A DNA stretch of 64,000 nucleotides from Antedon mediterranea (Eukaryota > Animalia > Echinodermata), in NCBI RefSeq assembly GCF_964355755.1, contig NC_092672.1, positions 19,915,237-19,979,236 of the forward strand. Direction: 5' to 3'. Shown here one piece after another: positions 2,123 to 61,157 of this stretch (its first letter is position 1; each line of letters opens with the position of its first letter). Under the pieces are notes generated by a model. It ran no database searches and had not been told where the DNA came from. It worked only from the letters and a program-made list of their open reading frames with translations. A program made the position numbers and the translations under genes.

Positions 2123-2221
2123 AATGGCTGGACAGCATTAATTTATGCTGCTAATGCAGGTAATACAACCATGTGCCAACTGGTCTTAGATGGTGGAGCT
2201 GATGTCAATATGCAGACTAAT
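2123..2221 (+). CDS. Exon A, ankyrin repeat NGWTALIYAANAGNTTMCQLVLDGGADVNMQTN
   Basis: 99 nt, ag|...|gtaagt, phase 0-0, fits the 33-aa ankyrin consensus. Confidence 0.9.
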
Positions 2222-5200
2222 GTAAGTCATACACACAGTTTATAACATTAATTTAACCTTCAGTGAAACAAATCAATAAATTTAAACTATTGTTTTTAGA
2301 ATTTAGATGACTACCAGTACTATAAGACTTTAGGAAAATCATAGATGTTATATAATATCTCTATGGGAAGATTAATTTAGTTGACAATACACTACTGTAG
2401 TATCCATGTTACTATACTATTGTAGTTATATTATAATAATACCAATTCTCGTAACATTATTTTAAATATATCTTTTATATTCTTAAAATGAATAGAATAA
2501 CACAATACTGGTGTGTATATATAGGTCAATATAGAAATGATGAATGTTATAAGTTATAAACACATGCGTAATAACTTATTTTCTTCTTTTTTACAAATTC
2601 TCATACTATTACTATTCTGTTTAAATTTGCAATCAAATTTTTTTATTAAGAACATGTATACTTCAAGTTAATTGTTTACACACTGTTATACCATAACATT
2701 AATATGTGTATTAAATAAAATACACATTTATTTTCCATAATTCATTGCCGAATGCTGCTTTTAGAAAAGTGTGAAATGAATTTTACACCACAGTTTTTAA
2801 AAATTGTTGCTATTGATTAATAAAAATGCTGATAGCATGCATCTATACATACAGGGTATCAATATAACCCAATTGTACTAGGAATGTTATATGTAGTTTC
2901 AACATTATCCAACATCTTCGATCCAATTTTGTGGTCAATGGGGTGGAAATTCCCCACTTTTTGTATGTTTGTCTGTTTTTTGTTATTGCATGCATCCATA
3001 TGGTAAATAAAAATGGCCACAATTAGGGAGAGCGTGGGGTATTAATGAGGTATCAAACTTTACTTGATTGCAATTGTACTGTGTTTTAAACTATAATTGT
3101 AACTTGCCCTTGGGCAAGTACACTTACTAGTTTGAGATATACTTTTATTCAACTGTGATATATTATTGTAAAAAGATTCTTGTTGTGTTGTTTTTGTTTT
3201 ATTAACAAAAATGTGCATTTTTCTAAACTATATTTATTTTTTAAATGTTAAATAGATTGGCAATACAGCATTGCATTTGGCTGCAGCAAATGGTCACGTC
3301 GATGTCTGCCAAACATTGGTAGACATGGCAGCAGCAGTGGACCAACAAAATAATGTGAGTCATAAATTAATTTTTGTAATCGCATTCATGATCAGAATCC
3401 TAAATTGTGTACATATTAACTTTAGATTAAAATGCTTGTTCCTCAAACAGAATTGCACAAACTGCATTCCTAAAGAATGTAATTATTTTATTACGGTATA
3501 GTTATTACGGTATATGTTAATACCTTCATATTTTTTCTTATTTTAAATTTTATTCAATTGTCTAATTATTCAGCATCTTAAATTTAACAAATTTACCATC
3601 AAGATAGTGCAGGCAAGTCAACATTGACCGAAAAAAAATTAAACAAGTTTAAAATGCTATTTTTGGGGCTATTAAAAATCTGCAGTTAATCTAGCAATCA
3701 TTGGGTGGATTACTGTAATTTGGTTATTAAAATCACTTTGGTTTTGAAGTTTCTTGTTGGTATGACAACTACAACTAATGCAGCTCCTGCATTGTATCTC
3801 TCTCAGAATATCCTTGTATAATCAATCTTCTTCAAACTTTTTTTTATCATTACATTAGTAATGGTAATTTTAATACAATTTTAATATTATTGAATGCTTT
3901 TCATGTTGGCAACAAATTTGTCACTGTGTGTATAATTGTGGTAAATTAAAACAAAATAAGAATGCCAGTTTTGCTATAAAAAAGGAAAGCTTAAAAATCG
4001 TCTACGGTAAATATTTGGCGCATGCTCATTGAACACCAAAGATCGAATCAAGTTTTTCTTTTTTTGGATGATCACTCTTTCTTTACATTTGCTCATTAGC
4101 TTTTTTCTGTTAGCAAATGTGCACTATTATAACATTATATTTCCATACCTTCATTCCTATCAATCAATCCTTCTGGTTGCTATGTTTCATATAGTTGAAA
4201 TGAAGAAAGACCACAAAGACAAAGACATTCAAAATGCACATGCTCAAAATTTAGGCAGTAACACTTATTAAGAAATAATCTTTTGGTTCACATACATTTA
4301 CTTACTGTCAATCGATAGTATTATCAGCATTCATGATACTGTGGCTATTAGTCCAGTCAGAAATCACCCTCACCATGGTATAAGAATGTACCTTAATAAC
4401 ATTTCATCCGTAGGTCCTACTGTATGTATATTGGTAATAACATTTCTTGATTTTGCGTCTTGCAAAACTTGTGATTTTAAGAGAAAATTATAGTTTTATA
4501 CCCAATTTATAACCGCCTTATGTCGTATTATTGTGTACAGCGAATGCGACGAAGCGTGACTGAAATTTCGATTAACAAAGCTATTTGAAAAAAATAATAG
4601 TTTATACAATAATTTAAGTATAGTTTACAATAAATTAAGTAATAAAATACATAACATATAAAGAAAACCCAAGTATAAACTAAAATATTTACAGATATGT
4701 GTTTAAAAATGTACAAATAAAAATGGCTTTCCATAAAATAAAGTGCGCCCTCACTCGTCCTTCTTTTATTGGACTAGTATGGATTTTGTTAGTTATTGCC
4801 AATTCTCCTTTTTTTTAAGACGTGACTTAATATATACAAATAAAGTTTGTTGGTGGAGAGTAGTCCTATTGTACAATGATAATTATTATTGGACATTTTA
4901 TACACAAAAGCATCTCATAAATGATCGGTTCACCTCCACGGCCTGAAAGTTCTCACTTGGGACGAGAAAGTAAAGCCCAGAACAAAAGTTGTATATGCAT
5001 TTATTTTAAATATTGTTAGAACACAGTAGTTTAATATGTTGACTTATTCAAATGCTTATAAATAACGTTTTGAACTTAAAAGATGTATTGTCCCCAAAAG
5101 TGAAGATGGAAATTAATTAATTAATTAAATGTAAAATAATAACACAGTTATTTGTCAGACATCTTCGAACTTATATAAAGAATCTTCGGGGCAGGATTAC

Positions 5201-8200
5201 ATTTTCTAAAACACGAAATTGTTCATACGATACGGATGCCAAAAATAGACAATTCAAAGAAACTCAAATAAAACTAACAATCACAAGGATTACTTTGTTG
5301 CGGATAACCAATGAGAAAATATTTCAGACGACTTTATTCATTTCATCTTTATTATCGTATACGTGAAATGTCATTTAAATGATTCTTACTCAAATTAACA
5401 TTGACTATAATCACGAATATGCAATGCATTGTGATATCCACGCAAGTAATGCTGTGAAAAAAAAAAGAATGTCCAAAATAAAACCAGATAATTAGGAAAT
5501 CATTACGTGTTTAGCAGATATACAATATGCACTTAATTCATCATGATGGTATACTGGAGGTTGTGTTTAAATATATACAATCCTTTTTTTCCATGATAAA
5601 AAATAGAAATATATTTGTGAAAATATAATATTCTGCCTCTTGCGTAAAAAAAAGAGGCAATAACTAACAAAATCCATACAAGTCTGATAAAAGAATGACA
5701 AGTGCGGGCGCACTTTATTTTATGGAAGGCCACAAGTTTTGCAAGACGCAACATCAAGAAATGTTATTGCCAATATACATAAAACCTACGGATGAAATTT
5801 TATTAGGGTACGTTCTTATAGCATGGTGAGGGTGATTTTTGACTGGACTATATGAATGATGAAGTTAGGGTAAAGAGATATCAACATGACCAGAGGATTG
5901 GTACCTGCTGTCTCTTTTTTTTATAAATTTGTTAAATTATTAAATCTTACTTAAAACAATTTTTGCTCCTTTAATGTACAGGATATCACCATTTTAGTAT
6001 TTGAATTGTACAAATTTATCAGTCTTATGTAGTAGGTTGCACTGCATTTCTGCATAATGCATATTTTTCTTGACTTTTTACACTAGAGAATGGTCCTACT
6101 TCCCTTCCCCTGTAGAGCACCGTATCAAGAATGTTAAATAACTGACAAGAGAAAATAAAAGTACAATTGCTTGTCTACAAACACTTTATTCACAGTACAC
6201 ATATGGCTGGCTACTAGTTGATTTCATTGATTAAATAGTGATAATAATGTGGTCCCATGCCTTCTACTCTCTATCAGCATGTGTATATGTGTCCAACAAT
6301 AATGTCCAACCACCAATAGTTCTTGATAGTTCAGACACTGAATTATTTAATATTTTAAATAAACCAAAATAAATTTACACAATCTAGTATTTTTGTAAAA
6401 AATTAATAAAATATGCACTTAAATGTTAATTTTCTTTTTACCCAAACCTTGTATTATTTTTAGATAAATACAGAATTTCATTTATAGTATTGTGGTACAA
6501 AACTATGGAACAATCAAGACCTTCTGTTTATGAATTATTTCTTGTACTGTAGGTGTTTTTGATTAGTTTTATAAACTACACCTTGTCACCTTCTGTCAAT
6601 TATTTAAGAATTACTGACATTCAATGATAGAAGTTTCTCCTTCATCTAATGTTCTAGGAAGCAGTATTGTTATATTTTTTTTTATTGAGAATTGTCCTAT
6701 AATTTCACACATAAATTAATTATTCCCTGAGATTTGGAATCAAAATAAACTGTACATTGACTTAGGAATGTATTTAATAATTGCCCTGATTTAATGCACA
6801 ACTATTAATTTAGATTGTATACTGGCTTTTTCTTTTATCCAAATGTACATATGAAAAACATAAGCACTCATTTTGAGGGCTTGTGATGAGTTGAAAATCA
6901 AATAACAATATTATCAAGTTAAAGTTCAATACAATTTTTTCCATAATGGTCAAATGAATACAAAACAGAAAATATATTTAGGTTAATACATAATTTGTTT
7001 AAAAAGTAGAATGAAATGATACATGAATAAAGGTACAGTATAACCATACAGGAACTTAAAATAAATAAATAAAATCAACAGAAATATAGACAATAGTGTA
7101 TAATTTCATCAGAAAAGTAGTTGGACAGATACTGATATTTCAAATATTATTTAAAAGTCTTTATAATTAGAAACAATGGTTAAATCAAGACTATTTCACT
7201 TATATTTGGGTTAAAACATCATTGTTTGTTTAAAATAATTGGCAAACTCTACAATCCTCCAAAAAACATAGCAAGCCGCATTTAACCAACATAAAAGTGA
7301 TTGAATCAGTAGTGTACAACTCACTTGGTTTGTGAATTAAAAAATCATTTTTTGTTATTAAAATAAAATAAAGTTGTATCATCTGAAAAAAAAGGTTGTC
7401 TGGAAGATTTACTAATTATTAATTTGAAATAATGATTTGATCTGCAAGATAGCTTTTAAATCAATCTAAGAAAGGCCCCAAAATACCATAACTTAAAAAT
7501 ATAAGGGTTAAAATTAACAACATCAAATGTTTTTGATAAATCTAGAAAAAAATAAACATCAATAATTTTTTTAACATGAGGTGTATTGTTACTTTCTTTA
7601 CCAGGATTAATTATAGACTGTATTACTTCTCATTTTTTATGTTACATTTATTCTCATTGAATTTAGTTTCGTAGCATTTTTTTCTTTGAAATGTGACAGT
7701 GCAGTAAATAATGTTGCTATACTTTTTATATCTTGAAATATCGGAAAATTTATGAATTTGTTAAAGTTTATGCTTATGTTTACTAAATTTATTTAGATGG
7801 GGTGAGTAGAGGGGTGTCATCCATAGTTGTTTTCGTGTTTTGTTTTTTTCTTGAACTGAAAAAAGTATATAAAAAAATGTATCCAACATTAGTATAGTTT
7901 AGACCAATCAGTTTGAGAAAGATAAAAGCAAAATACACCTATATCTCTAATTCAGTATGAATGGTCAGGAACGTCAACCTTATTTAAAGTTAATCATAAT
8001 CAATTATTTTTGACATAGGTAAATAATCAGAGATGAATTGTAATACCCGAATAAAAAAACCAAAATTGGTAGGCCTATGGTTTGTGTAAAAATAATCAAT
8101 AAGTTCTGCATTAGTTTTTGTAATTCTCTTGATTTAGAAATCGTAAGGAAAAAAGAAAAATAGTTGATAAGATGATATAAAATAATTATTAGTTAGATTA

Positions 8201-11200
8201 TGCTTATTAAATTTGATTAAAACAATGTTGAATTCTCCCACAATATTACAAAATATTCATGATTTAAATCTTGAAAACAATTAATTTATAATAACCACAA
8301 AATGTTCTATGTTATTAGATTTCAGTTGACTTAAATAAAGCCAAATATAGAATTCTTTTTTGTTTATAAAAGCAAATCACATATAGTTCTTTTGTTAATA
8401 ATAAATCTGGTTATATTTTGTAATAAAAAAAAACAATAATTGTGTTCTGGAATGTTCATTTTTATTAAATACATTATGCGTATGACAAAAAGGGTGATTT
8501 GTTTAGAAAGATTTCTGAATCATAAACATTACACATTGTATATTGTACCTACCTACTGTAAGTCATGACCAACATATAGTATGTGTAATGATTACCATTT
8601 TTAATCACTTTCCTTCATTAAATGCCTTTTCTGGATGTCGGCAGCCGGCAGATCATCTATCACATAAAAGGGTGTTTCCATCATAGCCTTAGTTTTTCGA
8701 ATCACAATGAATCTCTACGGCCTATAGGCCTAAATGATAATGTGTCTTGGGCATAGATCTTCACCTAAATTTTTCCAGTTACAAGGTGCATTTGATCTTT
8801 TCCCTTGATGATTGTCACCAAATCTTAGGTTGTAGCTTCTAGAATGCCTTTCAACTCGTAGCAATTCAGCTTCCATGTAGCTATTGTATCCTGTTTATAT
8901 TTGATGTTTCACACATTCATGTCAAACTATCCGTTGTAGCTTTAAATCTATCCTTAGTTTTACTTTGAAGTAAATAGGTGAACAAAGCTATAGAGAGAAA
9001 ATGTTCATACTTCAATCGTCAATTATGACGTCATAAACAAGGTACCAATCGAAAAAAGTGCGATTTATAATGTACTACTCCTCCGTTATTTGTTGTAGTA
9101 CTTCTGCTCCCGGAAATAGCAAAAAATTGCTGTATTTGGTAGCAAGGTTATTGATGTGTATGTGACGTTACATCCCGTCTTCTGACGTCATTACAGCTTC
9201 TTTTGCTGTACCCCGAGTATCGCACATTCGTACTTGTTTATTCATAGCATGTTCAGTAGGCTTAGTTTTTTTACCTATACTATGAATTTGTGTTTTTCTT
9301 GTATTCATAGTTCCAGATAAAGCACTAATAATGTGTTATGAATACTCAGGCTTATATTCTTAGTAAAATGTAATTACTTTAGACTTGCAGAATTATCAAC
9401 TGTTGGGAATTAAATATTATGCAGAGCAAGTATGTCTTCACTCAGAGATGTTCATAGCACTTTAATTTTACTGTAAATAAGAATTTGAGTTCTCTACACT
9501 AAAGGTTATTCACATGACAGTATGTAATACTAATAGTGATATGTAAAAGGAATTTAATAATAAATCATAATCATCAGAAATAGAAAAATTTATTTAATTA
9601 ATACAAATTGTTCAATACAATTTAAAATATTTAATATTCCTAGAGTATTATCACAAATAGATAATCATTTCAATTTGTTGCATTCAAAATACAGTAGGAA
9701 GGTTTGTTAATTATATAATTGTATTACTCGATAATTTTTTTAACTCCATCTTTGGTATTCTTTGAAAATTACCTTTTTTTTCAATGAGCTTGCCTGAATC
9801 TTCGACTGTCTGGTATTTTCAATTCTCCTTCTCTTTTTTTATTTGGAGATAATATCATATTTTGTATCATCTTCTTCCCAACTTTTTTATTATTTTTTTC
9901 TGGGAGCCTAGGCGTAAAGTTTTTAAACTTATATAGGTTTCCTTCCACACTATGTTTTTTGTTGGTTATTATTACAAGTGTTTATATAATTATTATTTGA
10001 TGTATTTTTAATATATGTGTGGAGAACATTTATTGAATATTTATTTATTGAATATTGAACAAATCAAATCAAATAAAAAAAATCATAATATAATAATGTT
10101 GTGTATGTATGCCTTAGTAAACATGTTGTATATGAATACCATTGGGCTACTGGATTAAATTTTGGTTTATATCTAGTAGGAATACAATTAATGTGCATTA
10201 TTAGAGTAAGCTAAGCTAGTGGCATGTTTTGAAATTAAAATGACCATTTTGATTAACTGACATTATATAAATGAAAGTTAAACTATTGTTTAATAGTGAG
10301 TATACAGTACGTGTACTCTTTAATGTTATGATTTTCTAAAAACCAAATGATGGTTACCTCACTAATAGAGTTAGCCTAGGCTTCTAGGATTATAATAGGC
10401 CTACCTAGCAGACAATATTTTTGTGAATAGAATAATTAAATAAAATACTTTTTATCTTTTTCTGTTTGGACATTTGAATCAATCAAATTGAAAAAATACA
10501 TTTATAGTTGTGACTACATTAGGTGTTCTGTAAATCATTTGTCATGCAACATGGAAATATTGCTGTTTTAGGACATAGCATCATAACTCAGGTTTTCATA
10601 GCCATAAAAGACTCTCCTAATTTTAACCATGATTTGTATGGTTTCAGGCTTTTACAGTTTTTAATATTGTATTGGTGTTATGTGTGTCAGTTATTTCAAA
10701 CCTAAACTTTTAACTGTTTAGGATTTTAATAAACTTCAACAGTTTTTTTCCCTTTTTGAACATGTCGTCAAAAAACTCCCTTCTTATTTTTCTTAACCAA
10801 ATTTCTTAAATTTTCTTAACAAACTCCGTAATCCACTTTTAATACTAGGGCCTCACACGCCCTTCATCTTCCTTTAACTAAACTTTCTTTAATTCAACAC
10901 AATGTCTAATAAGTGCCTCTAAATTATTGAATGCACTTCCTAATGATATCACATGTACCCCGATCTCAAGCAATTGTTTTCTGTATTTTCATCAAATTAC
11001 TACAGTAGTATATTTTAAATGATTATTGTCAGCCGTTTTTCATCTCCTCTGTCCCATATGGCTAAAAAATTCCAATAATTACCATTTATATCGTTTAGTG
11101 TCTTTATGCTTCCTGTTTATTTGTTTGTTTTTTTTGTACGTGTTTTGTTCTGTCTTTTTGTTATATTGTACATGGCTTGCCCACCACAAGTAACTTCTAG

Positions 11201-50200: not shown

Positions 50201-53200
50201 AACATGCATCCCTCTTACCCTAATTACCATGTGTTCCTGCCTGCATTAATGGTATCTGTTCCGATTTACAATCATATTGTTATGTATCACTCTGGCCTAG
50301 TCAATGACGACAATACGACAGGCTCATGTGTATACCAACAATGAAATTGCGCTATATTTAGACATTGACAGGGTTTGCTCACTGTCTGGGTGACAGCATG
50401 CAGCTTGTTTTTGAACGTTTAAACAAGTAGGTTAGACCTAGCCAATGGTTTTGAAATGATCATGACAACAAAACATACATAGCAATACACATCATGTCAA
50501 GTTAGTTCCTGCAACATGGGAACCACAGTCCTGGTAAGGGTCTGGTATCACAGTGTATAAAACATACATAGCAATACACATCATGTCAAGTTAGTTCTCA
50601 CAACATAGGAACCACAGTCCTGGTAAGGGTCTGGTATCACAGTGTATAAAACATACATAGCAATACACATCATGTCAAGTTAGTTCCTGCAACATAGGAA
50701 CCACAGTCCTGGTAGGGGTCTGGTATCACAGTGTATAAAACATACATAGCAATACACATCATGTCAAGTTAGTTCCCACAACATAGGAACCACAGTCCTG
50801 GTAGGGGTCTGGTATCACAGTGTATAAAACATACATAGCAATACACATCATGTCAAGTTAGTTCCCACAACATAGGAACCACAGTCCTGGTAGGGGTCTG
50901 GTATCACAGTGTATAAAACATACATAGCAATACACATCATGTCAAGTTAGTTCCCACAACATAGGAACCACAGTCCTGGTAAGGGTCTGGTATCACAGTG
51001 TATAAAACATACATAGCAATACACATCATGTCAAGTTAGTTCCCGCAACATAGGAACCACAGTCCTGGTAGGGGTCTGGTATCACAGTGTATAAAACATA
51101 CATAGCAATACACATCATGTCAAGTTAGTTCCTGCAACATAGGAACCACAGTCCTGGTAAGGGTCTGGTATTACAGTGTATAAAACATACATAGCAATAC
51201 ACATCATGTCAAGTTAGTTCCCGCAACATAGGAACCACAGTCCTGGTAAGGGTCTGGTATCACAGTGTATAAGACATACATAGCAATACACATCATGTCA
51301 AGTTAGTTCCTGCAACATAGGAACCACAGTCCTGGTAAGGGTCTGGTATCACAGTGTATAAAACATACATAGCAATACACATCATGTCAAGCTAGTTCCT
51401 GCAACATAGGAACCACAGTCCTGGTAGGGGTCTGGTACCACAATGTAAAAATGGTGAAAGTTTATTTTACAGTCTGCATTAATCTGCATGTTTGACTTGA
51501 TGAGGCATGAACAAAAGTGCTCGGAACAAAAGCAGAGCAAAATAGATAAAAAATGACTATTTATTTGCACACTAGATTACTTCATAAAAATGATAAAAAG
51601 AAGAGCTATTTTATCACCTTGATGAAACAGTACAGTATGTAGTGTGCAAATAGAATGTTGAAGTTTTTACTTGAGTCATCAAACTTTATCTATATAAAAT
51701 ATTGTAATATTATATAATTAACCATGAAAACATAATCCTTGTTAATTTCCAGTTTTTCCTGACAAATACAGTATCATACTGTGTTGCTTTCAATGTCATG
51801 GACAACTTGGATGAGCCAGCTAAACCACGGGGTTCAAAAATAGTAAGTTAAACTTTAGTACTTTAGACAATCTTGTAAACTACAAATGCTATGATTTAAT
51901 AATGTAATTTAATTTCAATATTAGTTTAAAAATATATTGTCATTGTCATTTTAGGGTCAGCTAGGAATGACTAATTTGGACATGAATTTGTTCTGGATAA
52001 GGTCCATTTATGAACACACTGTACAACATGGTTCAGCAAACACTATTTCAATTGATGGAAAGAACATAGGGTCACCTCCCATCTGTTTGGTTGCAACTCA
52101 TGTGGATAAATTGTCAGGGACAGCATCAGAAAAAGAGGAGCAGGTAAATAGTATATAAATATTAGATATTTATATCTTGTCTTTTTTTTAACTATGTCAA
52201 CATAAGCGCTCCTAGCAACTGAACACAACTGAATGCAACTATGAACCTCAACTGACTGCAACTGACAGGCGCACAACAATGTAGACATAAGCTTATAGTT
52301 ACTTTCAGTTGCCCATGTTCTATTTATACTGTAACTGAGTGAAACTGAAAATTTTTAAACGTGTCACACGTGTGATATGGGTAACGGCGACCAGTCGCAA
52401 TTGGTTTGTATATACTGGTTCCTATACAACTATGAATTGCGTTGTGCGTGTAGTAAGGTAAATTAATAGGCTCTTTAGAATTAATATTTTGCCTACAAAA
52501 GGGTTGACTGTATTAACAACCCATCAGTACAATTAGAACAAAAAAGCAGTTTGAGGTCTAATGTACATGTTTATACAATCAACTAATATAACATGAAAAT
52601 GGACCATTTAAGTTAAATATTACATGCCCTACAAAAGAATTCACATTAAAGTAGAAACACTGTTTGAGATTTTGTCATTTTCAATTACAATATGAATTAA
52701 TATAAATCAGCCTGTAACAGTTATGGAAGATTGTGACATTAGGTTGTTACATATTGTCTTGTAAACCACTGATCATGAGGATCACTGAGATCACGCAGAT
52801 TGATCTCGCTGATCATATGAGTATTCTCAGTGGATATATCATTGTCAACACTTAGCTCAGAATATGCCTGGAGGCGCAAACAAAATCCAAGATGGCGACA
52901 AAAATTCAAAATGACTGCCCATTTGATTTAAATTTTATTTATAATGCCTATTAAATGCTCTTTCAGAAAATTTTTGATTGGGTATGTCATCCTCAGAATG
53001 TATTTTGTAATTTAACATATGACTTCTAAGTCCAAGATGGTCGTCAAAATTGTATAATGCCTATTTCCTTTTTAAACTTGTTTTTTTTTAAATTTACCAC
53101 ACACATTGAATACAAAGTAAAAATATTAAATGAAATATACTATATAGATAATACAGTATATCAGCGTGATCAGTAATCATTGTGATGAGTTATCAGCGAT

Positions 53201-56200
53201 AGTAGCAATATGAATGCATTTATTAATTGAAGGTTATGCAGATGTACAAGAAAATGTTTGATAAAATGGAAGGAATGCCATATGCTCACCATGTAGATCG
53301 TGAAATGTACATGGTTGATAACACCATGAAATCACCTGAAGGTATTACAAAACTTAAGCAAAACGTTGGTAGATACATGAAGGAAATGGTGAGAGAAGTT
53401 CCAGTAAAGTGGGTTAATTTACAGGAAAGTTTGCAAAGAATTGGTGAAACAAAATTGTGTATTACGTTTGAGGAGGTAAAGTTTTGATTGTGGATTCCAA
53501 TGTAATTATATAATATGATTATTTATTGTTACGTTGTTTTTATTCCTACAGACACTAATAATATTTATAGTCCTGGCCTATCATTGAATTTTCCATTAGA
53601 TTTTCACCAGTCTCTACAAGTAATGTACTAAGTTAAGTTATTTATTTAAATTAAATTCTGTATTAGGTTTCCAAGATTGGCACTGAATGGGAAATTTCCG
53701 AAGAGGGGCTCGCCACTGCCATAGAGTATATGAATGACATTGGGATCATTTTATATTCGAGTTCTAACGAAAAACTGAAAAACACTGTGATAACAGATCT
53801 TCAAATGATGATTCAAATGGTGACAAAAGTGATCACGGTAGTTAAACCGTCTATTAAAGTGGTAGGTAGATAATGTATTTTATTATGATATTATATTGTC
53901 AAAAATGTGGATGTATAGGTGATGTTAATAATCTGTTCTTAGTAACTTGATGTGAAACAGTATAATTGTATTGATCATGTGACTGTACTGTATAAAGTAA
54001 GAATAAACTGGTTTTTTTTAATATAGAAGCAAATAAGGGTGCTGTGGAAAAGGCTAGATGAGGAAGGAATACTGGAGGAAAGACTGCTACGGTATTTATG
54101 GGAACATGAATTAGAGGAAGATCCACATCGCTTTGAAATCTTTACTGAAGTGATGAAGACATTTGGTTTGCTCTTTGAGAAATTGAAGGTAAGTTAATTC
54201 AATTCAATTTCTTTATTGCTGCTAACGCCATCAAGGGCTAATATCCACTTAAACATACTACATCATACAAACAAATACATATTTACATTTAAAATTGTTT
54301 TAAACATTTTAGATTGGCTGTCACTTAAATTAGCTTAAATGTTATACTTGTAATATTTTAATTTACAACACTTTGCTTACATCTGCAGGTAACCGAAGGT
54401 AACCGGGTATTCTTTGTTCCATCTCGAATGAAAACCGAGAAAGAGAGTCTTGAAGTTGAAACGGACAAAAAAAATATGGTTTCAATCTATCTTACACCTG
54501 TAGACTTTCTTCCTAATGCTGTCTACAACACATTGGTTGTTGCATTTCTGGACTTGATGGAGGAAAAAAATAAAGATGGCGACCAACTTGTGTCTCAAAA
54601 CCGCAGTGAATTTGACTTTAAGGATCATGGGGTCAATCTAGGCACAGTGAAAATTGAAAACAAGCATGCATTAAAGGTTTGGAAATTATTCATTTTATTT
54701 ATTTAATGTTTCAATTAAATATATTTAAAGACAAAATTGTAGATATCAAACAATGTTTTAAATGATTTCAATCAATCTTACTACTATTACACTATTACAT
54801 TTTCAATTTTATAAATAAATTGAATGCTACATATATGATGAATACAATGGTAATGTTTTGCATTTATTATTTAGCTCATTTTAAATTAACAAAGACAATT
54901 TCCTCATCAGCTTGAAATAACTCATCTGACTGAAGTTGATGGTAATGCTAGAGGCCAAATGAAAGAACCGCAGCCAAGTTTCTGCATAGAGGTAAAGATT
55001 AGCATGATATGCCTATGTGTTATTAATAACATGTTTAACACCAGCACTTGAATGTAATGATTGCCAATAAACAATGGAAATGATCATATAAACGTTTAAG
55101 TCGCCATGTACGAAACTCAAATTGCTGACTCTAATCAAAATTACAAAAGACATACTTATAATATTTTATTCTACGATATGTATATAATGTCTTTTTTATT
55201 CACACCCAAAAACTATGTAAATTCATTCCACGCTGGACCACCTAGTCGTAGGCGTAAGGTATCCCAGGAAAACTTGATACCCCAAATTGGAATTTGGCAA
55301 ACTGGCTAAATACTATATATAAACATCTTCCACCTTCTATGTAATCTTTGTTATCATGTAACACTCAGAGCCATTGAGGCACTCTGCTTAATTGTGTCAA
55401 GCACTTTTCCCTTTATGGGTTGGTTCAAGTTTTCAACCTATTATATTTTTAAATTATGTTCTACATTTTACTTGGTTTGTAGATGTTAAGATTTCTAAAG
55501 CATCAACTAGAAACTGTACTTGTCACTAGAGAAGGAGTTGGCTACAATCTATGTGTGTTGTGTACTGCTTGTAATCCAGCAGAGAAGCCTCATTTACATG
55601 ATCTCAAAAAGTGCTTGAAACTAGATACTAATAGTGTTAAATGTGGCAATGAACGCATGATGACCATTCATTTAAAGTGGCTATTTTTGGAAGGTTAGTT
55701 TAAATTTTTGATTATCAGATCATCACAATTTTCTTCAATTGCAGTATTTTTTATTTGATACCACATGTACAAAGATATTTTTCATTTAGTCCAGAGACAT
55801 CTACGAAGGCCGTTTTAATTATAGATAGGTTTTATTGTTAAAGTAATACATGGTTAAATACTTTTTTTTACAATATAATGAAAATCAGTTGACTAATTGA
55901 TTGACATTCTATGAATTCTGCAGAATATGGGGAAACAATCTCATCAGTCGCAGGTTTGTTGATGATAATACCAGATAATAAAAATGTTTTTTATGTATTT
56001 ACTAGTCCTTGCTAATGGTAGAAAATGATAACATGAAACTATCAGTATCCACCTAAGATTAAAAAAAAATGATAAACATGAAACTATCAGTATCCACATA
56101 AGATAAAAAAAATGATAACATAAAACTATCAGTATCCACCTAAGATAAAAAAAATGATAACATGAAACTATCAGTATCCACATAAGATAAAAAAAATGAT

Positions 56201-59200
56201 AACATGAAACTATCAGTATCCACATAAGATAAAAAAAATGATAACATGAAACTATCAGTATCCACATAAGATAAAAAAAAATGATAACATGAAACTATCA
56301 GTATCCACATAAGATAAAAAAAATGATAACATGAAACTATCAGTATCCACATAAGATAAAAAAAATGATAACATGAAACTATCAGTATCCACATAAGATA
56401 AAAAAAAATGATAACATGAAACTATCAGTATCCACATAAGATAAAAAAAATGATAACATGAAACTATCAGTATCCACATAAGATAAAAAAAAATGATAAC
56501 ATGAAACTATCAGTATCCACATAAGATAAAAAAAATGATAACATAAAACTATCAGTATCCACATAAGATAAAGAAAATCATCAAGGAAAGAATATAATAT
56601 TTTGTTGTTTTGTTATACAATACATTTTCATTGTAGATTCTGTCAGATTTACAATTGTTAGGATGAGATATAAACGAGCATTATAAATAATGTATTTCTA
56701 AAAATCATCATGTCTCAAGTTCAGCAAATTCTAAATAGAATTTAAACAAAAATCATAAAAGATGTGGTGGCTAGGTTTTTTTTTAAACGATTATACTAGA
56801 AATGGAAATATTTGTTTTTAAACAAAACTGTGTGAGCTATTATTTTAGGCCTTAATTATTACTGTATGTTATCTGAGATTAACAAAAGCATATAAGTATT
56901 AACTAACACTAATACACAAGCTAATTTTCCCACAAGCTGGCTTAAAAATCAAACTATTTAAAAAAAATTGATATGGTCTTCATTGCTAAGTAAATTTGGA
57001 AAAATGTTAGTATCTATATATAAATTTACGCAAGAGAAAAATTTGGTAAATCGCGCCTTACTTCTAGAATGTTTACTCGATGGTATATAAAGTTGGTTCG
57101 TACTTTCGGTACTGATTTTAACCACCTGATTTAACCCTGTTTACTAATTTAAATTGAGTTAGATAATTAGTTACTGACAATTAAAACAAATTTAGGTTCA
57201 ACGATTTGCCCCAAATAGGGAGTTTTCCAATCTGTCTAATGGAATTCCATCTTGAAAAATACCTGCACACAATAATATGAGGATGCTTGAAATTTACCTA
57301 TCTCCTTCTATGATAATTGTTTTTAATAGGCTGAAAACCGATTGAACACTTCGAGTATAGCATCATAATGTTGAAGACAGGTCGATTTTCTTTAAAAAAT
57401 ACTATTTTATAGATTTAATATACGTTTATACAAATGTATTGATTTGCGATGAATGAAAGATTTCAATCTCTCAGTCTCCCAGTATAAGTATTTGGTTTAA
57501 CACAAGTAGGTACATTTATGGGCCCTTCGAAGATAAACTTAAATCTTTAAATATAGTATTGCAATACGTACAATACTGTAAATACGTATTAACCATTTTT
57601 CGGTGCCATTTGTATCGCAAATTTCTTATAGCGAGTGTGGGTACTGTTAGATATATAAACACAAAATATACAAAACCTTTGTATTAATTAATTATTTATT
57701 ATAATTAAAAAAAATATAAACGTAGTAATGATGTATCGTTACATGTACTTTACTATTTCAATCGACTATGACAGTGACAGTTTTAACAAAGTATTAAATC
57801 GCAAATGTTCTACTCTATTTAGTGAGACAAATCTCATGACACAAAATACATGAATAAGGACCAATGTGAATGGCATAATAAAACAGTGTATCCTAGTGTT
57901 AAAAGAATGGTTTATTTAATAAAAACTAACTTTAAAATCTGTATTGAATGAATTGTAAGTGATACTGTTTTTGTTATTATGACTAATATGTTTATTTTGC
58001 ATAGATACAACAACTGCTACTCCTCTGTCTACAAGCTCATTAGAGACAGGTTAGTGGTTATTATTAGATCATGTATCATATGGACAGTTTGTCTGAAAAT
58101 ACATGAATATACATAATAGCATAACATCTTGGTGTCATTAGCAGAATAGTTGATTTAATACTGGTATTCTTGATTATGACTAATGTATATGTTTATTTTG
58201 CATAGATGCACTTATTGCTGCTCCTTTGGCTGCAAGCTCATTAGGGACAGGTAAAGGTGAGTAACATTAGATAGGGCAGTGTTACAACCATTTATGTAGT
58301 ACCAGCTATAATAAAACTACTGCTAAGAAAGAAACATTAAAGATATCATATCATTTATTTCATTTGAACAAATACAAACATGAAAACATAACAAATGTAA
58401 ATCAATGAGGCACGATTACCTAAAATAACAGCGGAGAAGCCAAAATAAGACATTCAAACATATTTAAAACATAATTAAAAGTTAAAATTGCTGTATATGA
58501 ATGACAAGATAGTTTAAATTGTATGAAGTTAAATATATTACAGCAAAATCCACCACAGGTTAGCTAATTCTTTAAAATAATCAAAGCCGAACAAATCAGA
58601 ATGGAATCGTGCTCATATTTCTTCTAACTTTCAGAAACATCAAATTATCAACATTATTTTCTTTGATATTATTAATTTGAATACTATAATAACAATTTTC
58701 AAATAGTAGACAAAACTTTTCTACGTAGGAAAGGTGGTCAAAATAATAACTAAAACATCCTTGAAAACAAAACAGCAATTTGTTAAGAGATAGATTGACA
58801 CACATATATAATATATATAAACTTTTATGGGGATAAAAATGCAATAATTATCCATCATTTGTTTTGCAGAAAATACATTGCAAGAAAAGTATTTTATTTT
58901 ACTAAAATATAAATATGCTTATTTTGCGGTGAAACATTTTAAGATTTGTTTAAGAGTGACTGGTATCAATCATAGTATAATAACTCTCAAACACTTGTTT
59001 TTGTAGAGAATACATCACAAGAACAATTCAACAAGTTGAAGTATGATCTTGGTTTACTCTATATTGGTGAGCGACTGCTGTTGTTGAAATGCTGTCTATT
59101 TGAACACGTAGACTTACAGCACCTTGGCAAGTCAAGTTGCACAGCAAATTACCTATTAAACCAACTACATGAACGTCGTTATATCACATCTACTAATGTC

Positions 59201-60121
59201 CGTCTGTTGCTAGAGGTGGCTGAGATTTCACAGTTGAAAGATGCTGAAGATCTCATAAATCAATATGTTGTAACCAACAAGGTTCCAAACACTGATGAAG
59301 GAACAAAGTCAGTTTCACCATATAGGAAACGATTGTGCATGGCATTGCAGCAATTTGACCCACATAAGTTAAATGATGTAATTGCTTACTATGGATTGAA
59401 CTTTGTTTGTTTACCAACAATTTGGGAATTAGTGTTTCACCTTGAAAGCAATAGAAAATTAGTAGAAGAATCAGAAAGAAAGAGGTTTGCTGAGCTTCTT
59501 GGACCAATCGCTAAGAAAATACTATTCAATGGTATGTATGTTGTATATTGTGCAAACATAATTTATAACAATTGAAGTCAATCTTTTTGATTTCTTACAT
59601 ACACAGTATGATTATAAATAATGTAAGCCATGTAAAGTATATTCAACTATAAATCACATCATAAATAAATATTGATAGCATAACCTGCATAATTACACCA
59701 TAATTGTTAAAATAGTAAAAATCAATCAATATGTAATTAGTATTACCTAAAGAAATCTCATAATTATACTTTAAGACTTAGCATACATGCAAGACCATTA
59801 GCACTGTATATAATGTCTTGTTTGACACAACTTTATCTATGTTTGTTGATGAAATTACTACTCTTTAAAAACAGAAAGACTTTTGATGACATTACAAGTT
59901 TTATAATACGTTGTGCTTGCAAAAATCCTATTATGAAATATATATTTTGTCTTTGTCTAATTTGTTATTGTACCTACTCCTAGTTCCTTCCTATGTTACT
60001 ATGTTATTGGTTAGTGAAAAGAATAAAAAATAAATTAATTTGAATTGAATTTTACCTATGATCACTTAAATGGCTTGTTTCAACTATATTATTAAGGGTT
60101 TTTCAATTTTTTTCAGATTAA
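2123..60121 (+). CDS. Multi-exon Roco-family gene, 5'-incomplete: ankyrin repeats - ROC GTPase - COR - linker - tandem DED-like domain; 24 exons, 3279 nt, about 1092 aa visible
   Basis: 24 exons with AG/GT boundaries and compatible phases splice into one open frame ending GAT TAA at 60119-60121; ankyrin, ROC G1-G4, COR and DED-like motifs occur in order. Confidence 0.85.
3256..3354 (+). CDS. Exon B, ankyrin repeat IGNTALHLAAANGHVDVCQTLVDMAAAVDQQNN
   Basis: 99 nt, ag|...|gtgagt, phase 0-0, GxTALHLAA..GH motif. Confidence 0.92.
4349..5850. mobile_element. Non-autonomous DNA transposon with long TIRs (TAGTCCAGTC...GACTGGACTA)
   Basis: 4349-4473 is the inverted copy of 5731-5850, and about 4724-4815 of about 5645-5731; no transposase ORF. 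Confidence 0.8.
6612..8970 (-). pseudogene. Decayed non-LTR retrotransposon (CR1/L2-group-like) with ORF1, EN and RT relics
   Basis: On - strand: ERHSRSYNLRFG, PRHIII and YVIDDLP (about 8640-8876), HRPTN and DVPDH (EN-like), FLDLSKTFDVV (about 7515-7550), FSDDTT (about 7373-7390); many stops and frameshifts. Confidence 0.6.
11281..12364 (+). repeat. 1.1-kb intronic block also present at about 36125-37188 and 40335-41590
   Basis: Three collinear copies from aaatagtcataaaattaaatc to cctattatattattcttaat. Confidence 0.9.
13956..15410. mobile_element. Non-autonomous Mutator-like (MULE) element
   Basis: About 80-bp near-perfect TIRs (CGCCGTGGTTAGGATTCCGG...), 9-bp direct repeat ATTAAAAAA at 13947-13955 and 15411-15419. 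Confidence 0.8.
14191..14835. mobile_element. Nested non-autonomous hAT-like element inside the MULE
   Basis: 16-bp TIR CAGCCCACGAA(A/T)TTCA, subterminal AAGGTCGGCA motifs in both orientations, flanking direct repeat CCTATT. Confidence 0.75.
17045..17143 (+). CDS. Exon C, ankyrin repeat FLRTPLSYAAQAGHSSTCMCLINAGSDVNIADT
   Basis: 99 nt, tttcag|...|gtaagt, phase 0-0, TPL..AA..GH...LI.AG.DVN; not in the ORF track. Confidence 0.88.
20264..21711 (-). mobile_element. Non-autonomous Helitron with both termini
   Basis: - strand reads A|TCTATATATAAATTTACG ... hairpin CTAGATGGTACGCGAGCGAAGCGAGCGTACCATCTAG|T: TC start, CTAG end, A-T insertion site, no TSD. Confidence 0.8.
25450..25646 (-). mobile_element. 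tRNA-derived SINE with CORE-like body
   Basis: A box TGGCGCAGTG and B box GGTTCGAATCC, followed by GGCAAGGTACTTTAC...GCCTCTCTCCACCCATGTGTATAAAATGGGTACC. Confidence 0.7.
25836..25925. repeat. 28-bp tandem repeat, 3 copies
   Basis: ataatgaacagaacagagtatgctcagt-like unit. Confidence 0.8.
26826..26970. repeat. About 68-bp tandem duplication, 2 copies
   Basis: actgtttatatttt(g/a)tgtggtgtagtaggtacagggg...cctatgctacagcagtat occurs twice. Confidence 0.8.
27745..27957 (-). mobile_element. tRNA-derived SINE (third family)
   Basis: A box TGGTCTAGTGG and B box GTTCGAATCC, then a non-tRNA body and a TA-rich tail; left boundary approximate. Confidence 0.55.
28045..28362. mobile_element. MITE with TTAA target duplication (Kolobok-like)
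   Basis: ttaa|AGATGTATTGTCCCCC...GGGGGACAATACATCT|ttaa. Confidence 0.8.
28933..34161 (+). repeat. Intronic segmental duplicate of 6612..10321, including the LINE relic
   Basis: Long collinear similarity with copy-specific indels, e.g. extra 29259-29346 and about 31111-31904. Confidence 0.9.
29259..29346 (+). mobile_element. Miniature DINE-1/Helentron-associated-like element
   Basis: AGTCGCGTGGACGCGACT palindrome, (GTCN)n microsatellite, repeated CACGCGACT; inserted in a T run that is empty in the paralogous block near 6935. Confidence 0.65.
38806..38910 (+). CDS. Exon D, atypical ankyrin repeat NGNTPLHIHLAQRNPTLEMVTCLINKGASVTSQNK
   Basis: 105 nt, ttccag|...|gtaata, phase 0-0, GNTPLH and L..KGA motifs. 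Confidence 0.88.
41128..41367 (-). mobile_element. Full-length tRNA-derived SINE
   Basis: A box TGGCTTGGTGG, B box GGTTCAAGTCC, A-rich tail; interrupts catacat|gctgattgcc, which is intact in the paralog at about 36941. Confidence 0.8.
43087..43191 (+). CDS. Exon E, duplicate of exon D, NGNTPLHIHLARRNPTLEMVTCLINKGASVTSQNK
   Basis: 105 nt, intact splice sites, 5 nt differences from exon D. Confidence 0.85.
44402..44512 (+). CDS. Exon F, divergent ankyrin repeat NGNPPLYEYLIENPNPTSEIVIFLIKNDGALLTLLNK
   Basis: 111 nt, cccacag|...|gtaatc, phase 0-0, visibly related to exons D and E. Confidence 0.82.
45190..45405. repeat. Degenerate array of about 18-bp units (ccacctctcgtaagcga-like)
   Basis: Roughly ten diverged units; likely a transposon subterminal relic. 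Confidence 0.55.
45467..45631. repeat. 82-bp tandem duplication, 2 copies
   Basis: aaagctcactcatattatggg...aaacacagg occurs twice. Confidence 0.9.
45843..45927 (+). CDS. Exon G, ankyrin cap/linker EGKTPESIVETNMYITKKEKIVILNYFD
   Basis: tttttag|...|gtaagt, starts with GKTP, phase 0-1 matches exon H. Confidence 0.8.
46127..46741 (+). mobile_element. 5'-truncated LINE (Rex1/Babar or L2-group RT C-terminus) with 3' UTR
   Basis: ORF 46184-46576 has HPLH..F....SG.R.R....T.RF..SF.P.AI.L.N; AATAAA then (ATGACT)3 tail. Confidence 0.8.
46841..47156. mobile_element. Second copy of the TTAA MITE; an end fragment is also at about 5081-5120
   Basis: ttaa|AGATGTGTCCCCC...GGGGGACAATACATCT|ttaa, internal sequence collinear with 28045..28362. 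Confidence 0.8.
47375..47540 (+). CDS. Exon H, pre-ROC helix VPAEIRARG and ROC P-loop CMFLGKEGAGKTS
   Basis: GxxxxGKT Walker A motif after a hydrophobic strand; phase 1-2. Confidence 0.92.
47923..48023 (+). CDS. Exon I, ROC switch I (FNSAEQSTDGIVTTT)
   Basis: STxGI ROC G2 motif; phase 2-1. Confidence 0.9.
48380..48448 (+). CDS. Exon J, ROC insertion DIELSEQIRSHALGEKVDKRLKE
   Basis: tgtatag|...|gtaggc, phase 1-1, stays in frame. Confidence 0.78.
48568..48698 (+). CDS. Exon K, ROC G3 (SVWDYAGQLDYYITHR)
   Basis: WDxAGQ..YY.TH ROC signature; phase 1-0. Confidence 0.93.
49663..49900 (+). mobile_element. CR1-like LINE 3' fragment
   Basis: Translates KLNLRRNSFSFRVVLLWNGLSDYVVSASSLN, matching the CR1 ORF2 C-terminal motif. 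Confidence 0.65.
50471..51447. repeat. 89-bp minisatellite, 11 copies
   Basis: aaacatacatagcaatacac recurs every 89 bp from 50471 to 51361. Confidence 0.95.
51753..51842 (+). CDS. Exon L, ROC (FFLTNTVSYCVAFNVMDNLDEPAKPRGSKI)
   Basis: Continues the TH-x-FFL ROC motif; 90 nt, phase 0-0. Confidence 0.9.
51955..52143 (+). CDS. Exon M, ROC G4 (FWIRSI ... PPICLVATHVD)
   Basis: W..SI and P..LVxTHxD ROC motifs; 189 nt, phase 0-0. Confidence 0.92.
53233..53475 (+). CDS. Exon N, ROC end (VDN) and COR start (VPVKWVNL)
   Basis: VDN G5-like motif and P..W COR start; weak acceptor, with an in-frame alternative cag at 53239-53241. Confidence 0.87.
53667..53861 (+). CDS. Exon O, COR (AIEYMNDIGIILY ... NTVITDLQMMI)
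   Basis: Resembles the COR consensus L.FLHD.G.I.Y...V..DP.W; 195 nt, phase 0-0. Confidence 0.9.
54027..54188 (+). CDS. Exon P, COR (GILEERLLRYLW ... MKTFGLLFE)
   Basis: G.L...L...LW and M..F.L COR motifs; 162 nt. Confidence 0.9.
54389..54676 (+). CDS. Exon Q, COR (FFVPSRM ... FLPNAVYNTLVV)
   Basis: Y/FxVP and F.P..F..L.V COR motifs; 288 nt, phase 0-0. Confidence 0.9.
54911..54991 (+). CDS. Exon R, LEITHLTEVDGNARGQMKEPQPSFCIE
   Basis: catcag|...|gtaaag, 81 nt, in frame. Confidence 0.82.
55483..55693 (+). CDS. Exon S, COR C-terminus with Cys/His cluster (LCVLCTAC...HLHDLKKC...VKC...W)
   Basis: tttgtag|...|gttagt, phase 0-1. Confidence 0.85.
55924..55953 (+). CDS. Micro-exon T (EYGETISSVA), 30 nt
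   Basis: ttctgcag|...CAG|gtttgt, phase 1-1, no stop. Confidence 0.6.
56021..56575. repeat. 42-43-bp minisatellite, about 13 copies
   Basis: Unit atgataacatgaaactatcagtatccacataagat(a)n; source of four spurious - strand ORFs. Confidence 0.95.
57013..57824 (+). mobile_element. 3'-truncated copy of the same Helitron family
   Basis: Starts A|TCTATATATAAATTTACG; 57013-57470 and about 57715-57824 match the reverse complement of parts of 20264-21711; no terminal hairpin seen. Confidence 0.75.
58005..58049 (+). CDS. Micro-exon U (DTTTATPLSTSSLET), 45 nt
   Basis: ttttgcatag|...CAG|gttagt, phase 1-1. Confidence 0.75.
58206..58250 (+). CDS. Micro-exon V (DALIAAPLAASSLGT), 45 nt, paralog of U
   Basis: ttttgcatag|...CAG|gtaaag, phase 1-1; second in-frame donor gtgagt at 58257. 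Confidence 0.75.
59007..59531 (+). CDS. Exon W, tandem death-effector-domain-like module
   Basis: Two helical units of about 80 aa: F..L...L.....LK..L ... L...L.ERRYI...NV.LL.E, then SPYRKRL...L ... WELVFHLE, similar to caspase-8/cFLIP tandem DEDs; 525 nt, phase 1-1. Confidence 0.75.
60117..60121 (+). CDS. Coding part of the terminal exon: completes Asp (G|AT), then TAA
   Basis: Strong acceptor tttttttcag at 60107-60116; phase 1 gives GAT TAA. Confidence 0.7.
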
Positions 60122-60217
60122 TAAGCAATTCCACTTCTATCTAGTCTAGCAGAAAATTGAAAGAGTACTACAGACATGTGACAAAATCAAGTAAAACATT
60201 GGAAGAAAATAAAAGAG

Positions 60218-60523
60218 TATAGTACCGTAACCAAAACGAGTCTCATTACCATGCGAGACAACCAAACGAGTAGGGTATCGTAACCAAAACAAGTATCATT
60301 ACCATGCGAGACAACCAAACGAGTAGGGTATCGTAACCAAAACAAGTCTCATTACCATGCGAGACAACCAAACGAGTAGGGTATCGTAACCAAAACAAGT
60401 CTCATTACCATGCGAGACAACCAAACGAGTAGGGTACCATAACAAAAACAAGTCTCATTACCATGCGAGACAACCAAACGAGTAGGTTATCGTAACCAAA
60501 ACAAGTATCATTACCATGCGAGA
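60218..60523. repeat. 53-bp tandem repeat, about 5.7 copies, in the putative 3' UTR
   Basis: Unit gtaaccaaaacaagtctcattaccatgcgagacaaccaaacgagtagggtatc. Confidence 0.93.
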
Positions 60524-61157
60524 CGTACATGCAAACAAATACACAGTTAAAAAGTAAAAATAAAACACCTGCAATACCATTAGTTACAATGTTATTCATC
60601 TTGTCAGATTACGTCCATACATGAAAGGTTTAAAATATTGGTATGTTGCTGTACTATATTATTTAGATTAATAGTTGAAACCAATCAAACTGTGGTATGT
60701 TTGTAAATATCATTCGTTTTGTATATCCTTGTTGAACTTTATTATTAGTATAATACAGAATATGTGCATTTCTAGTTTCAAACTTAGTAACATTCACTTG
60801 GAAACAGAATAATGTATATAATTATTATAAAGTGTCGATCATTTTGTATATTCTTGTTTGTATTCATTATTCAGTTAAACATAAGTTTATAAAAAGTATT
60901 ACTTTTTAAGATGAAATACTTTGTTTTCTTTGAATATAATTAATCATTGGTGAACACTGGATTCTTGAAGGTCATCATGTGGATGTAAAATTCACATTTC
61001 ACTGAGCATTCACAACCATTAAGAATAAATCTTAGTTACAATAAGAATATTCTGCAATGACAGTCAGTTTTAATGCCAACTTTTTTCACAATTTAATTTT
61101 TTTACTGCCATATAATTAAGTTTAGTGTTTAAATGTTTGTTTTACTTTGTTTTTCTG

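Follow-up and report, generated by a model that had tools for sequence, protein, structure and literature searches.

A 64,000-nucleotide stretch of the genome of the crinoid Antedon mediterranea (the window) carries, at positions 2123-60121, a gene for a predicted Roco protein with six ankyrin exons, a Roc GTPase domain, a COR domain, a linker and an exon, designated exon W, that is predicted with high confidence to fold as a caspase-8-like tandem DED made of two packed helical bundles. As a first reading of the window from its sequence alone had claimed, no kinase follows COR; the linker and the DED pair run to the stop codon, and the exons are likely to be spliced into one kinase-free Roco mRNA and protein. 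What is new, and absent from that first reading, is that the DED pair is encoded by a single phase 1-1 exon that appears, from comparison of family sequences, to have been swapped between gene models. There is slightly better than an even chance that the product is an intracellular immune sensor signaling through caspases or TIR proteins that bear the same type of DED. The locus is half annotated and the members of the family are all labeled uncharacterized, which makes the family easy to miss.

The gene model comprises 24 exons spread across 58 kb, all on the plus strand, and motif and splice-site scans placed GT...AG ends on 23 of 23 introns. The spliced frame of 1092 codons is uninterrupted, with a single stop at its end (60119-60121), which bears out the sequence-only reading's claim of an intact frame. 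The 5' end is open: the model contains no start codon, so the beginning of the gene lies beyond the window or was missed, and no exons upstream of the first ankyrin exon were found in the window. Long open reading frames are absent from the window, as is typical of intron-rich animal DNA, and the G+C content is 30% in the window and averages 38% in the exons. Junctions 8 to 18 and 21 to 22 are closely matched by models of paralogues, the ankyrin junctions less so; these paralogues are automatic gene models rather than transcripts, and their numbers were taken from protein databases. The possible 30-nucleotide linker exon (55924-55953) is doubtful and is backed by no paralogue model, and its removal keeps the frame. 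In the database protein P0001, the donor of the last linker exon lies 6 nucleotides further downstream.

Both of the features examined as marks of a Roco protein are present. The Roc motifs GKEGAGKT, QSTDG, WDYAGQ and ATHVD, which presumably represent G1 to G4 (the assignment of G5 is tentative), are intact, occur in that order and are kept in paralogues, and COR comes directly after Roc, in agreement with what had been read from the sequence. Taken by themselves, the split Roc exons had no Pfam Roc match; P0002, a 93% identical paralogue, matched Roc with an E value of 1.2e-9. The exon at 53667-53861 matched COR-A (E 6e-6), and P0001 matched COR-A with an E value of 3.1e-15 and COR-B weakly (E 0.004) in Pfam. 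Among proteins of solved structure, prokaryotic Roco proteins and LRRK2 match best by sequence. NACHT was absent from the Pfam results for P0001 and P0002, which contained Roc/COR instead, and the layout of LRRK1 and LRRK2 was not found, as the ankyrins precede Roc and a linker, the DED pair and the stop follow COR. On these comparisons, the locus encodes a Roco protein, not an NLR and not an LRRK, and its predicted tail is not DAPK-like.

The putative sensor arm has one ankyrin repeat per exon, with phase 0-0 in all six exons, an arrangement that marks the exon-shuffling ROCO receptors. Five of the six exons passed the Pfam Ank cut-off (E 1.7e-6 to 3e-9), and exon 6 had no Pfam match; a family profile built from 18 paralogue repeats and run against all six frames of the window recovered exactly the six exons and nothing else below an E value of 0.29, upholding the earlier count of at least six repeats. 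No further ankyrin or cap exons were found in the window. Exon 3 is identical to the start of the paralogue P0009 at 13 of 14 residues, exon 6 shares 25 identities with P0009 repeats, and the order of repeat types differs between the locus and P0009. Across 24 family-type repeats, variation in both sequence and length is greatest in the loop that follows the first helix. Exons 4 and 5 have 5 differences in 105 nucleotides; four of these are silent, and the single replacement is located in the variable loop. Exon 4 lies within a 1.1-kb block duplicated at 42426-43496, and local duplication seems to lengthen and shorten the arm. In the long introns, blocks of 0.3-1.2 kb recur at 78-94% identity, including 6609-12365 versus 28930-37189; the recurring blocks 35783-39217 and 39972-43496 carry ankyrin exons 4 and 5.

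Exon W alone had no match in Pfam or in a single-sequence PDB search. ESM Atlas placed it among DED clusters at 0.91-0.92, and a profile of five W sequences matched 89 proteins at E <= 0.001. At least 56 of 86 new W relatives have a Pfam DED match at E <= 0.001, mostly under the curated cut-off, in a scan of the best five families per protein. The W profile also matches the human caspase-8 sequence (E 8.9e-8) and a caspase-8-like Anneissia protein, P0137 (probability 98%). The AlphaFold model of W, built with 51 aligned sequences, has a predicted local distance difference test score (pLDDT) of 96 and a predicted template modeling (TM) score (pTM) of 0.89; it replaced an earlier model from 5 sequences that was poor in the first 40 residues (pLDDT 65). 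Foldseek ranked the caspase-8 tandem DED first (E 2.9e-4, TM 0.72-0.74), and caspase-8 was also the best match in VIA-align (Z 15.4, root mean square deviation 3.0 across 160 residues), where the top 12 rows were all DED proteins, followed by pyrin domains at Z 10.6 and death domains at Z 9.3. The DED-like pair that had been proposed from the sequence is thus predicted to adopt a death fold. Profile comparison of the two halves of W detected no internal repeat (probability 0.4%), so that the second half is assigned as a DED by fold only.

P0001, an uncharacterized Antedon mediterranea protein, is 100% identical both to exon W and to the COR region and hence is probably the model of the 2123-60121 locus. 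Several points weigh against a single long product. P0001 (NCBI, 594 aa) begins within the exon at 53233-53475 and is without the ankyrins and the greater part of Roc; P0002, the closest paralogue model, has no ankyrins either; and gaps of 13.7 and 21.7 kb separate ankyrin exons 2, 3 and 4, where an open frame is weak proof because any choice of phase-0 exons stays in frame. The locus could instead be a recently duplicated member of a birth-and-death cluster, with no single long mRNA: it may yield a COR-DED product only, its first three ankyrin exons may be part of a different gene or stranded, or it may be a fresh pseudogene. Such a history would fit the coverage of the last 594 residues only by P0001, the many partial models in the family, the several internal duplications in the long introns and the existence of a 93% identical paralogue. 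It is nevertheless unlikely, given 1092 codons without a stop or frameshift, canonical ends on all 23 introns and intact Roc motifs. Moreover, P0009, in which ankyrins of both types are joined to Roc-COR and which shows 70.5% identity across residues 1-899, spans the long-intron junction with the same exon types (identities of 10/12 on one side and 6/12 on the other), and no other ankyrin exons or second Roc exon set lie in between. Among the other paralogues, P0002 joins Roc, COR and W, and P0012 and P0146 contain the complete Ank-Roc-COR-DED order in one model that opens with a short cap rather than a kinase; the complete paralogue P0048 also begins with the cap and ankyrins. Runs X1, X2, X3 and X5 on 42430-50400 cover the introns, contain no exon-exon joints among the matches listed and behave as DNA.

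A search with residues 1-660 of P0002 returned 48 proteins, comprising 17 from Antedon, 26 from Anneissia and 5 weak matches that are bacterial or unnamed, and the 43 crinoid paralogues lend substance to the earlier suggestion that the protein belongs to a family. Close relatives were found only in crinoids, in many copies; lineage-specific expansion of this kind is typical of immune receptors. In a Roc-COR tree of 20 rows, the window protein falls in a crinoid clade (100/99), and a second crinoid type (P0006, P0008), the bacterial rows and one LRRK-like row fall apart; this tree contains no DAPK, and long branches leave its deep nodes unsure. Atlas clusters resembling P0012 list Ank and Roc families and occur most often in molluscs, sponges and arthropods. 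Ank-Roc proteins are likely to be widespread among invertebrates, a point that serves as a lead only.

DAPK1 has the order kinase-Ank-Roc-COR-death domain, and the locus might represent the 3' portion of a DAPK1-like gene of the ordinary kind, with its kinase upstream of the window and a housekeeping role in the cytoskeleton or autophagy. The succession of Ank, Roc, COR and a death fold is presumably that of DAPK1, the Atlas clusters resembling P0012 are automatically named "death-associated protein kinase 1-like," and the 5' end of the locus is not in the window. This origin is nonetheless very improbable. A kinase domain is listed for none of the 48 Roc-COR matches, P0012, P0146 and P0048 begin with the cap and ankyrins, and the close relatives, found in crinoids only and in many copies, do not look like a conserved orthologue kept as a single copy. 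At the C terminus there is a predicted DED pair (Z 15.4) and not the single death domain of DAPK (the best-scoring death domain has Z 9.3). As weak evidence, three proteins, none of them a DAPK, were recovered when longer Roco relatives were sought.

The tails joined to crinoid Roc-COR cores vary. In 46 crinoid Roc/COR models, a count that leaves out P0004, P0005, P0045 and P0048 and includes many partial models, a W-type pair was present in 11, a more distant DED pair in 14 and neither in 21; three of these last carry HEPN_DZIP3 and one a Death domain. P0018, with a HEPN tail, and P0021, with a Death tail, are sister Roc-COR cores. Identities were compared among 11 proteins carrying both COR and W. 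The window protein and P0003 are 26% identical in COR and 94% in W, the window protein and P0010/P0011 are 91% identical in COR and 50% in W, and P0006 and P0010 are 26% identical in COR and 95% in W. The COR tree and the W tree conflict: in approximately unbiased (AU) tests, the grouping from COR was rejected on the W tree (p 8.8e-4), as were the two groupings from W on the COR tree (p 5.5e-6 and 1.3e-33). In P0010 and P0011, the linker is still 93-97% identical to that of the window protein and the sequence switches only after it, so that the exchange maps to the intron preceding W. The models compared are all located on a contig of one and the same length. Exon W also terminates the ZU5 proteins P0004, P0005 and P0016, and a symmetric phase 1-1 exon is suited to shuffling. 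Against an exchange, the AU groups were named after the trees had been seen, P0036 was left out of the AU tests, and the swap partly rests on automatic models in a tandem cluster that may join neighbors; such mis-joining is possible and would require the same error in three models, P0007, P0010 and P0011.

Unusual arrangements were also observed among the relatives. P0145 has two Roc-COR units within one protein, P0054 has four W-type DED pairs ahead of its Roc domain, P0069 contains W, LRR, a weak COR and Death in that order, and P0016 contains COR, a DED pair, ZU5 and W in that order. P0007 and P0009 contain many copies of the Thr/Ser/Ala-rich linker unit, and short repeated units make the linker that connects COR with the DED pair highly variable in length (P0007, P0009, P0012).

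The 86 new W relatives include 14 NACHT proteins, 3 caspases, 2 TIR proteins, 3 kinases, 3 Roc proteins and 3 proteins with NHL repeats, together with single cases of a PARP14-like protein, a URGCP GTPase and a deubiquitinase; 10 relatives were looked up, of which 8 are from Antedon and 2 from Anneissia. The NACHT proteins, with the same DED clade as W, agree with the NLR-like logic that had been suggested from the sequence. On the W profile, the caspases P0108 and P0126 score E values of 5e-15 and 2.5e-7, the TIR protein P0136 scores 2.9e-4 and the caspase-8-like P0137 scores 3.9e-4. P0108, P0126 and P0136 are tandem-DED proteins of Antedon with near-consecutive accessions on one contig, and both caspases keep SHG and QACR motifs, which are presumed to be catalytic. 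The three form an apparent cluster, and P0108 is labeled caspase-6-like despite its long DED prodomain. DEDs bind DEDs, which makes P0108, P0126 and P0136 the first candidate partners, and they may be regarded as closer same-species candidates than caspase-8. The earlier proposal that the protein could engage caspase-8 directly needs amending, as the nearest putative partners by sequence within the species are the lineage-specific tandem-DED caspases P0108 and P0126 and the TIR protein P0136 rather than a canonical caspase-8.

If the protein is an immune sensor, the ankyrin arm, with its variable loop after the first helix, would bind a microbial or altered-self protein, and binding would shift the nucleotide-dependent monomer/dimer state of Roc-COR, for which a Roco dimer model is given in the available text of PMC4104024. 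DED pairs on the flexible Thr/Ser linker would then be brought together and seed a DED filament, which could recruit the Antedon tandem-DED caspases (P0108, P0126) or the TIR protein P0136 and lead to cell death or inflammatory signaling. In the course of evolution, tandem paralogues that traded their single DED exon would likely change which effector a given sensor calls. More tentatively, crinoids may possess a second NLR-like system built on Roc-COR in which both ends are exon cassettes, with the ankyrins providing specificity and the exchangeable DED-pair exon serving as an address label that would direct each sensor to a caspase or TIR effector particular to the lineage.

Other observations also weigh against the sensor reading. 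W is only about 23% identical to the prodomain of the caspase P0108; ankyrin exons 4 and 5 are 95.2% identical and their flanks 94.1% and 94.5%, so that this copy gives no sign of fast diversification; and the tandem-DED inhibitors cFLIP and viral FLIP are among the fold matches. The whole protein might instead act through its DED pair as a cFLIP-like brake or a nonlethal adaptor under Roc control, which would cap or compete for the DED filaments of NLRs and caspases or feed kinase or NF-kB signaling. The matches to cFLIP, MC159 and vFLIP at Z 12-13 are consistent with such a role, as are the lack of a catalytic effector in the protein itself and the occurrence of the same DED clade on kinases, a deubiquitinase and NHL-repeat proteins besides caspases. 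It is considered improbable, since caspase-8 chains top both fold searches and the HEPN and Death tails on the sister cores P0018 and P0021 fit an output position; a variable repeat arm with a nucleotide switch would also be better suited to a trigger.

For LRRK2 and DAPK1, it is still disputed how the Roc-COR nucleotide cycle drives output. In a kinase-free Roco protein with a polymerizing DED pair as its only output, caspase activation could report the state of the switch. If the immune-sensor reading is correct, the family would be an animal receptor family parallel to the NLRs, with named candidate partners in the same genome. The address-label reading would, if true, add an animal counterpart of the bacterial variable-effector Roco proteins and a kinase-free readout of a Roco switch. 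For comparative immunity, the family would also offer evidence of an output exon that appears to move between very different GTPase cores.

Table 1. Exons of the Antedon mediterranea Roco gene model and other elements in the window.
Feature	Position	Strand	Remarks
Ankyrin exon 1	2123-2221	+	33 aa, phase 0-0; Pfam Ank E 1.6e-8; AG/GT ends
Ankyrin exon 2	3256-3354	+	33 aa, phase 0-0; Pfam Ank E 3.2e-9
Ankyrin exon 3	17045-17143	+	33 aa, phase 0-0; Pfam Ank E 1e-6
Ankyrin exon 4	38806-38910	+	35 aa, phase 0-0; family-type repeat with variable loop; Pfam Ank E 1.7e-6
Ankyrin exon 5	43087-43191	+	105 nt, phase 0-0; Pfam Ank above cut-off; recent duplicate of exon 4
Ankyrin exon 6	44402-44512	+	111 nt, 37 aa, phase 0-0, divergent; family profile E 1e-6
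Cap exon, ankyrins to Roc	45843-45927	+	matched by P0002, P0009 and P0012
Roc exons	47375-47540 (P-loop GKEGAGKT), 47923-48023 (QSTDG), 48380-48448, 48568-48698 (WDYAGQ)	+	
Roc exons	51753-51842, 51955-52143 (ATHVD)	+	junctions as in P0002, P0010 and P0011
Roc/COR junction exon	53233-53475	+	junctions as in P0002, P0010 and P0011
COR exons	53667-53861, 54027-54188, 54389-54676, 54911-54991, 55483-55693	+	
Possible linker exon, doubtful	55924-55953	+	30 nt, phase 1-1; AG/GT ends, in frame
Two Thr/Ser/Ala-rich linker exons	58005-58049, 58206-58250 (or -58256)	+	phase 1-1
Exon W, whole predicted tandem DED	59007-59531	+	525 nt, phase 1-1, single exon
Terminal coding exon with stop	60117-60121	+	same final residue as P0001
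Intronic open reading frame	46082-46573	+	164 codons; weak Pfam ALKBH8_N match (E 0.004); high read depth; presumably resembles the end of a long interspersed nuclear element (LINE) reverse transcriptase
Very high-copy intronic element	46686-47217		depth 15,000-39,000 versus about 20 elsewhere (run X1); probably a short transposon
Tandem arrays inside or just after the gene	50470-51451, 56022-56578, 60211-60524		11 copies of 89 bp, 13 of 42 bp and 6 of 53 bp, respectively
tRNA-like Rfam match	27886-27957	-	at threshold, 29.4 bits versus a cut-off of 29; possibly part of a short interspersed nuclear element (SINE)

Compared with the Roco family (LRRK1/2, DAPK1, MFHAS1/MASL1 and the Chlorobium tepidum Roco), the crinoid protein shares a Roc domain with the P-loop and WDxAGQ motifs and a COR domain directly next to it, whereas it has no kinase after COR or in its complete paralogues, a predicted C-terminal tandem DED and dozens of crinoid paralogues. 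DAPK1 is similar in having ankyrins ahead of Roc-COR and a death-fold tail, with an N-terminal kinase according to the available text of PMC4104024; the crinoid proteins differ in the DED pair, the lack of a kinase in the family models and the fast-evolving multicopy nature of the family. Caspase-8 and cFLIP share with W the fold of the tandem DED and its interdomain packing, but W is 17-19% identical to them, is C-terminal, is not accompanied by a protease domain and belongs to a crinoid-expanded DED clade.

The overall design has precedents, as death-fold or TIR Roco proteins and exon-shuffled Roco receptors have already been described. In the available sections of the cited papers, a Trichoplax Roco protein with CARD and death domains (PMC4104024) and Roco proteins with TIR or Death domains from Aplysia (PMC9334734) and from a sea anemone (NG1/NG3; PMC5094078) are reported; in these, as here, Roc-COR is fused to immune adaptor domains, which were read as possible immune signaling. 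They differ in combining LRR, TPR or kinase arms with CARD, Death or TIR, and the sections available describe no tandem DED or ankyrin cassette. Literature searches, whose scope excluded figures, supplements and most subscription reviews, found no publication on an Ank-Roc-COR-DED family. The idea is less novel than the earlier reading suggested, in view of the CARD, death-domain and TIR Roco proteins and the bacterial and algal precedents.

The brown-algal LRR-ROCO proteins (available text of PMC3341825 and PMC11378527) similarly have one repeat per phase-0 exon before Roc-COR and are clustered and expanded, with an immune role proposed, not shown. In contrast, the crinoid protein has ankyrins rather than LRR, is from an animal, and has a predicted death-fold output whose exon has apparently been exchanged. 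Prokaryotic LRR-AP-GTPase-COR proteins, in the portion of PMC8195603 available, likewise combine sensor repeats, a Roc-COR switch and an interchangeable C-terminal effector, of which there are at least 24 variable kinds in bacteria, and polymorphic expansions in marine invertebrates repeatedly feature DED, HEPN, ZU5 and ankyrin. In that portion, the Roc-COR proteins with variable tails are bacterial, whereas the invertebrate expansions center on TRADD-N and not on Ank-Roc-COR-tandem DED. The NLRs share the combination of a repeat sensor, a nucleotide switch and a death-fold output, and crinoid NACHT proteins share the DED clade of W; in the predicted crinoid Roco, by contrast, the switch is a Ras-like Roc-COR GTPase and the order of the domains is reversed.

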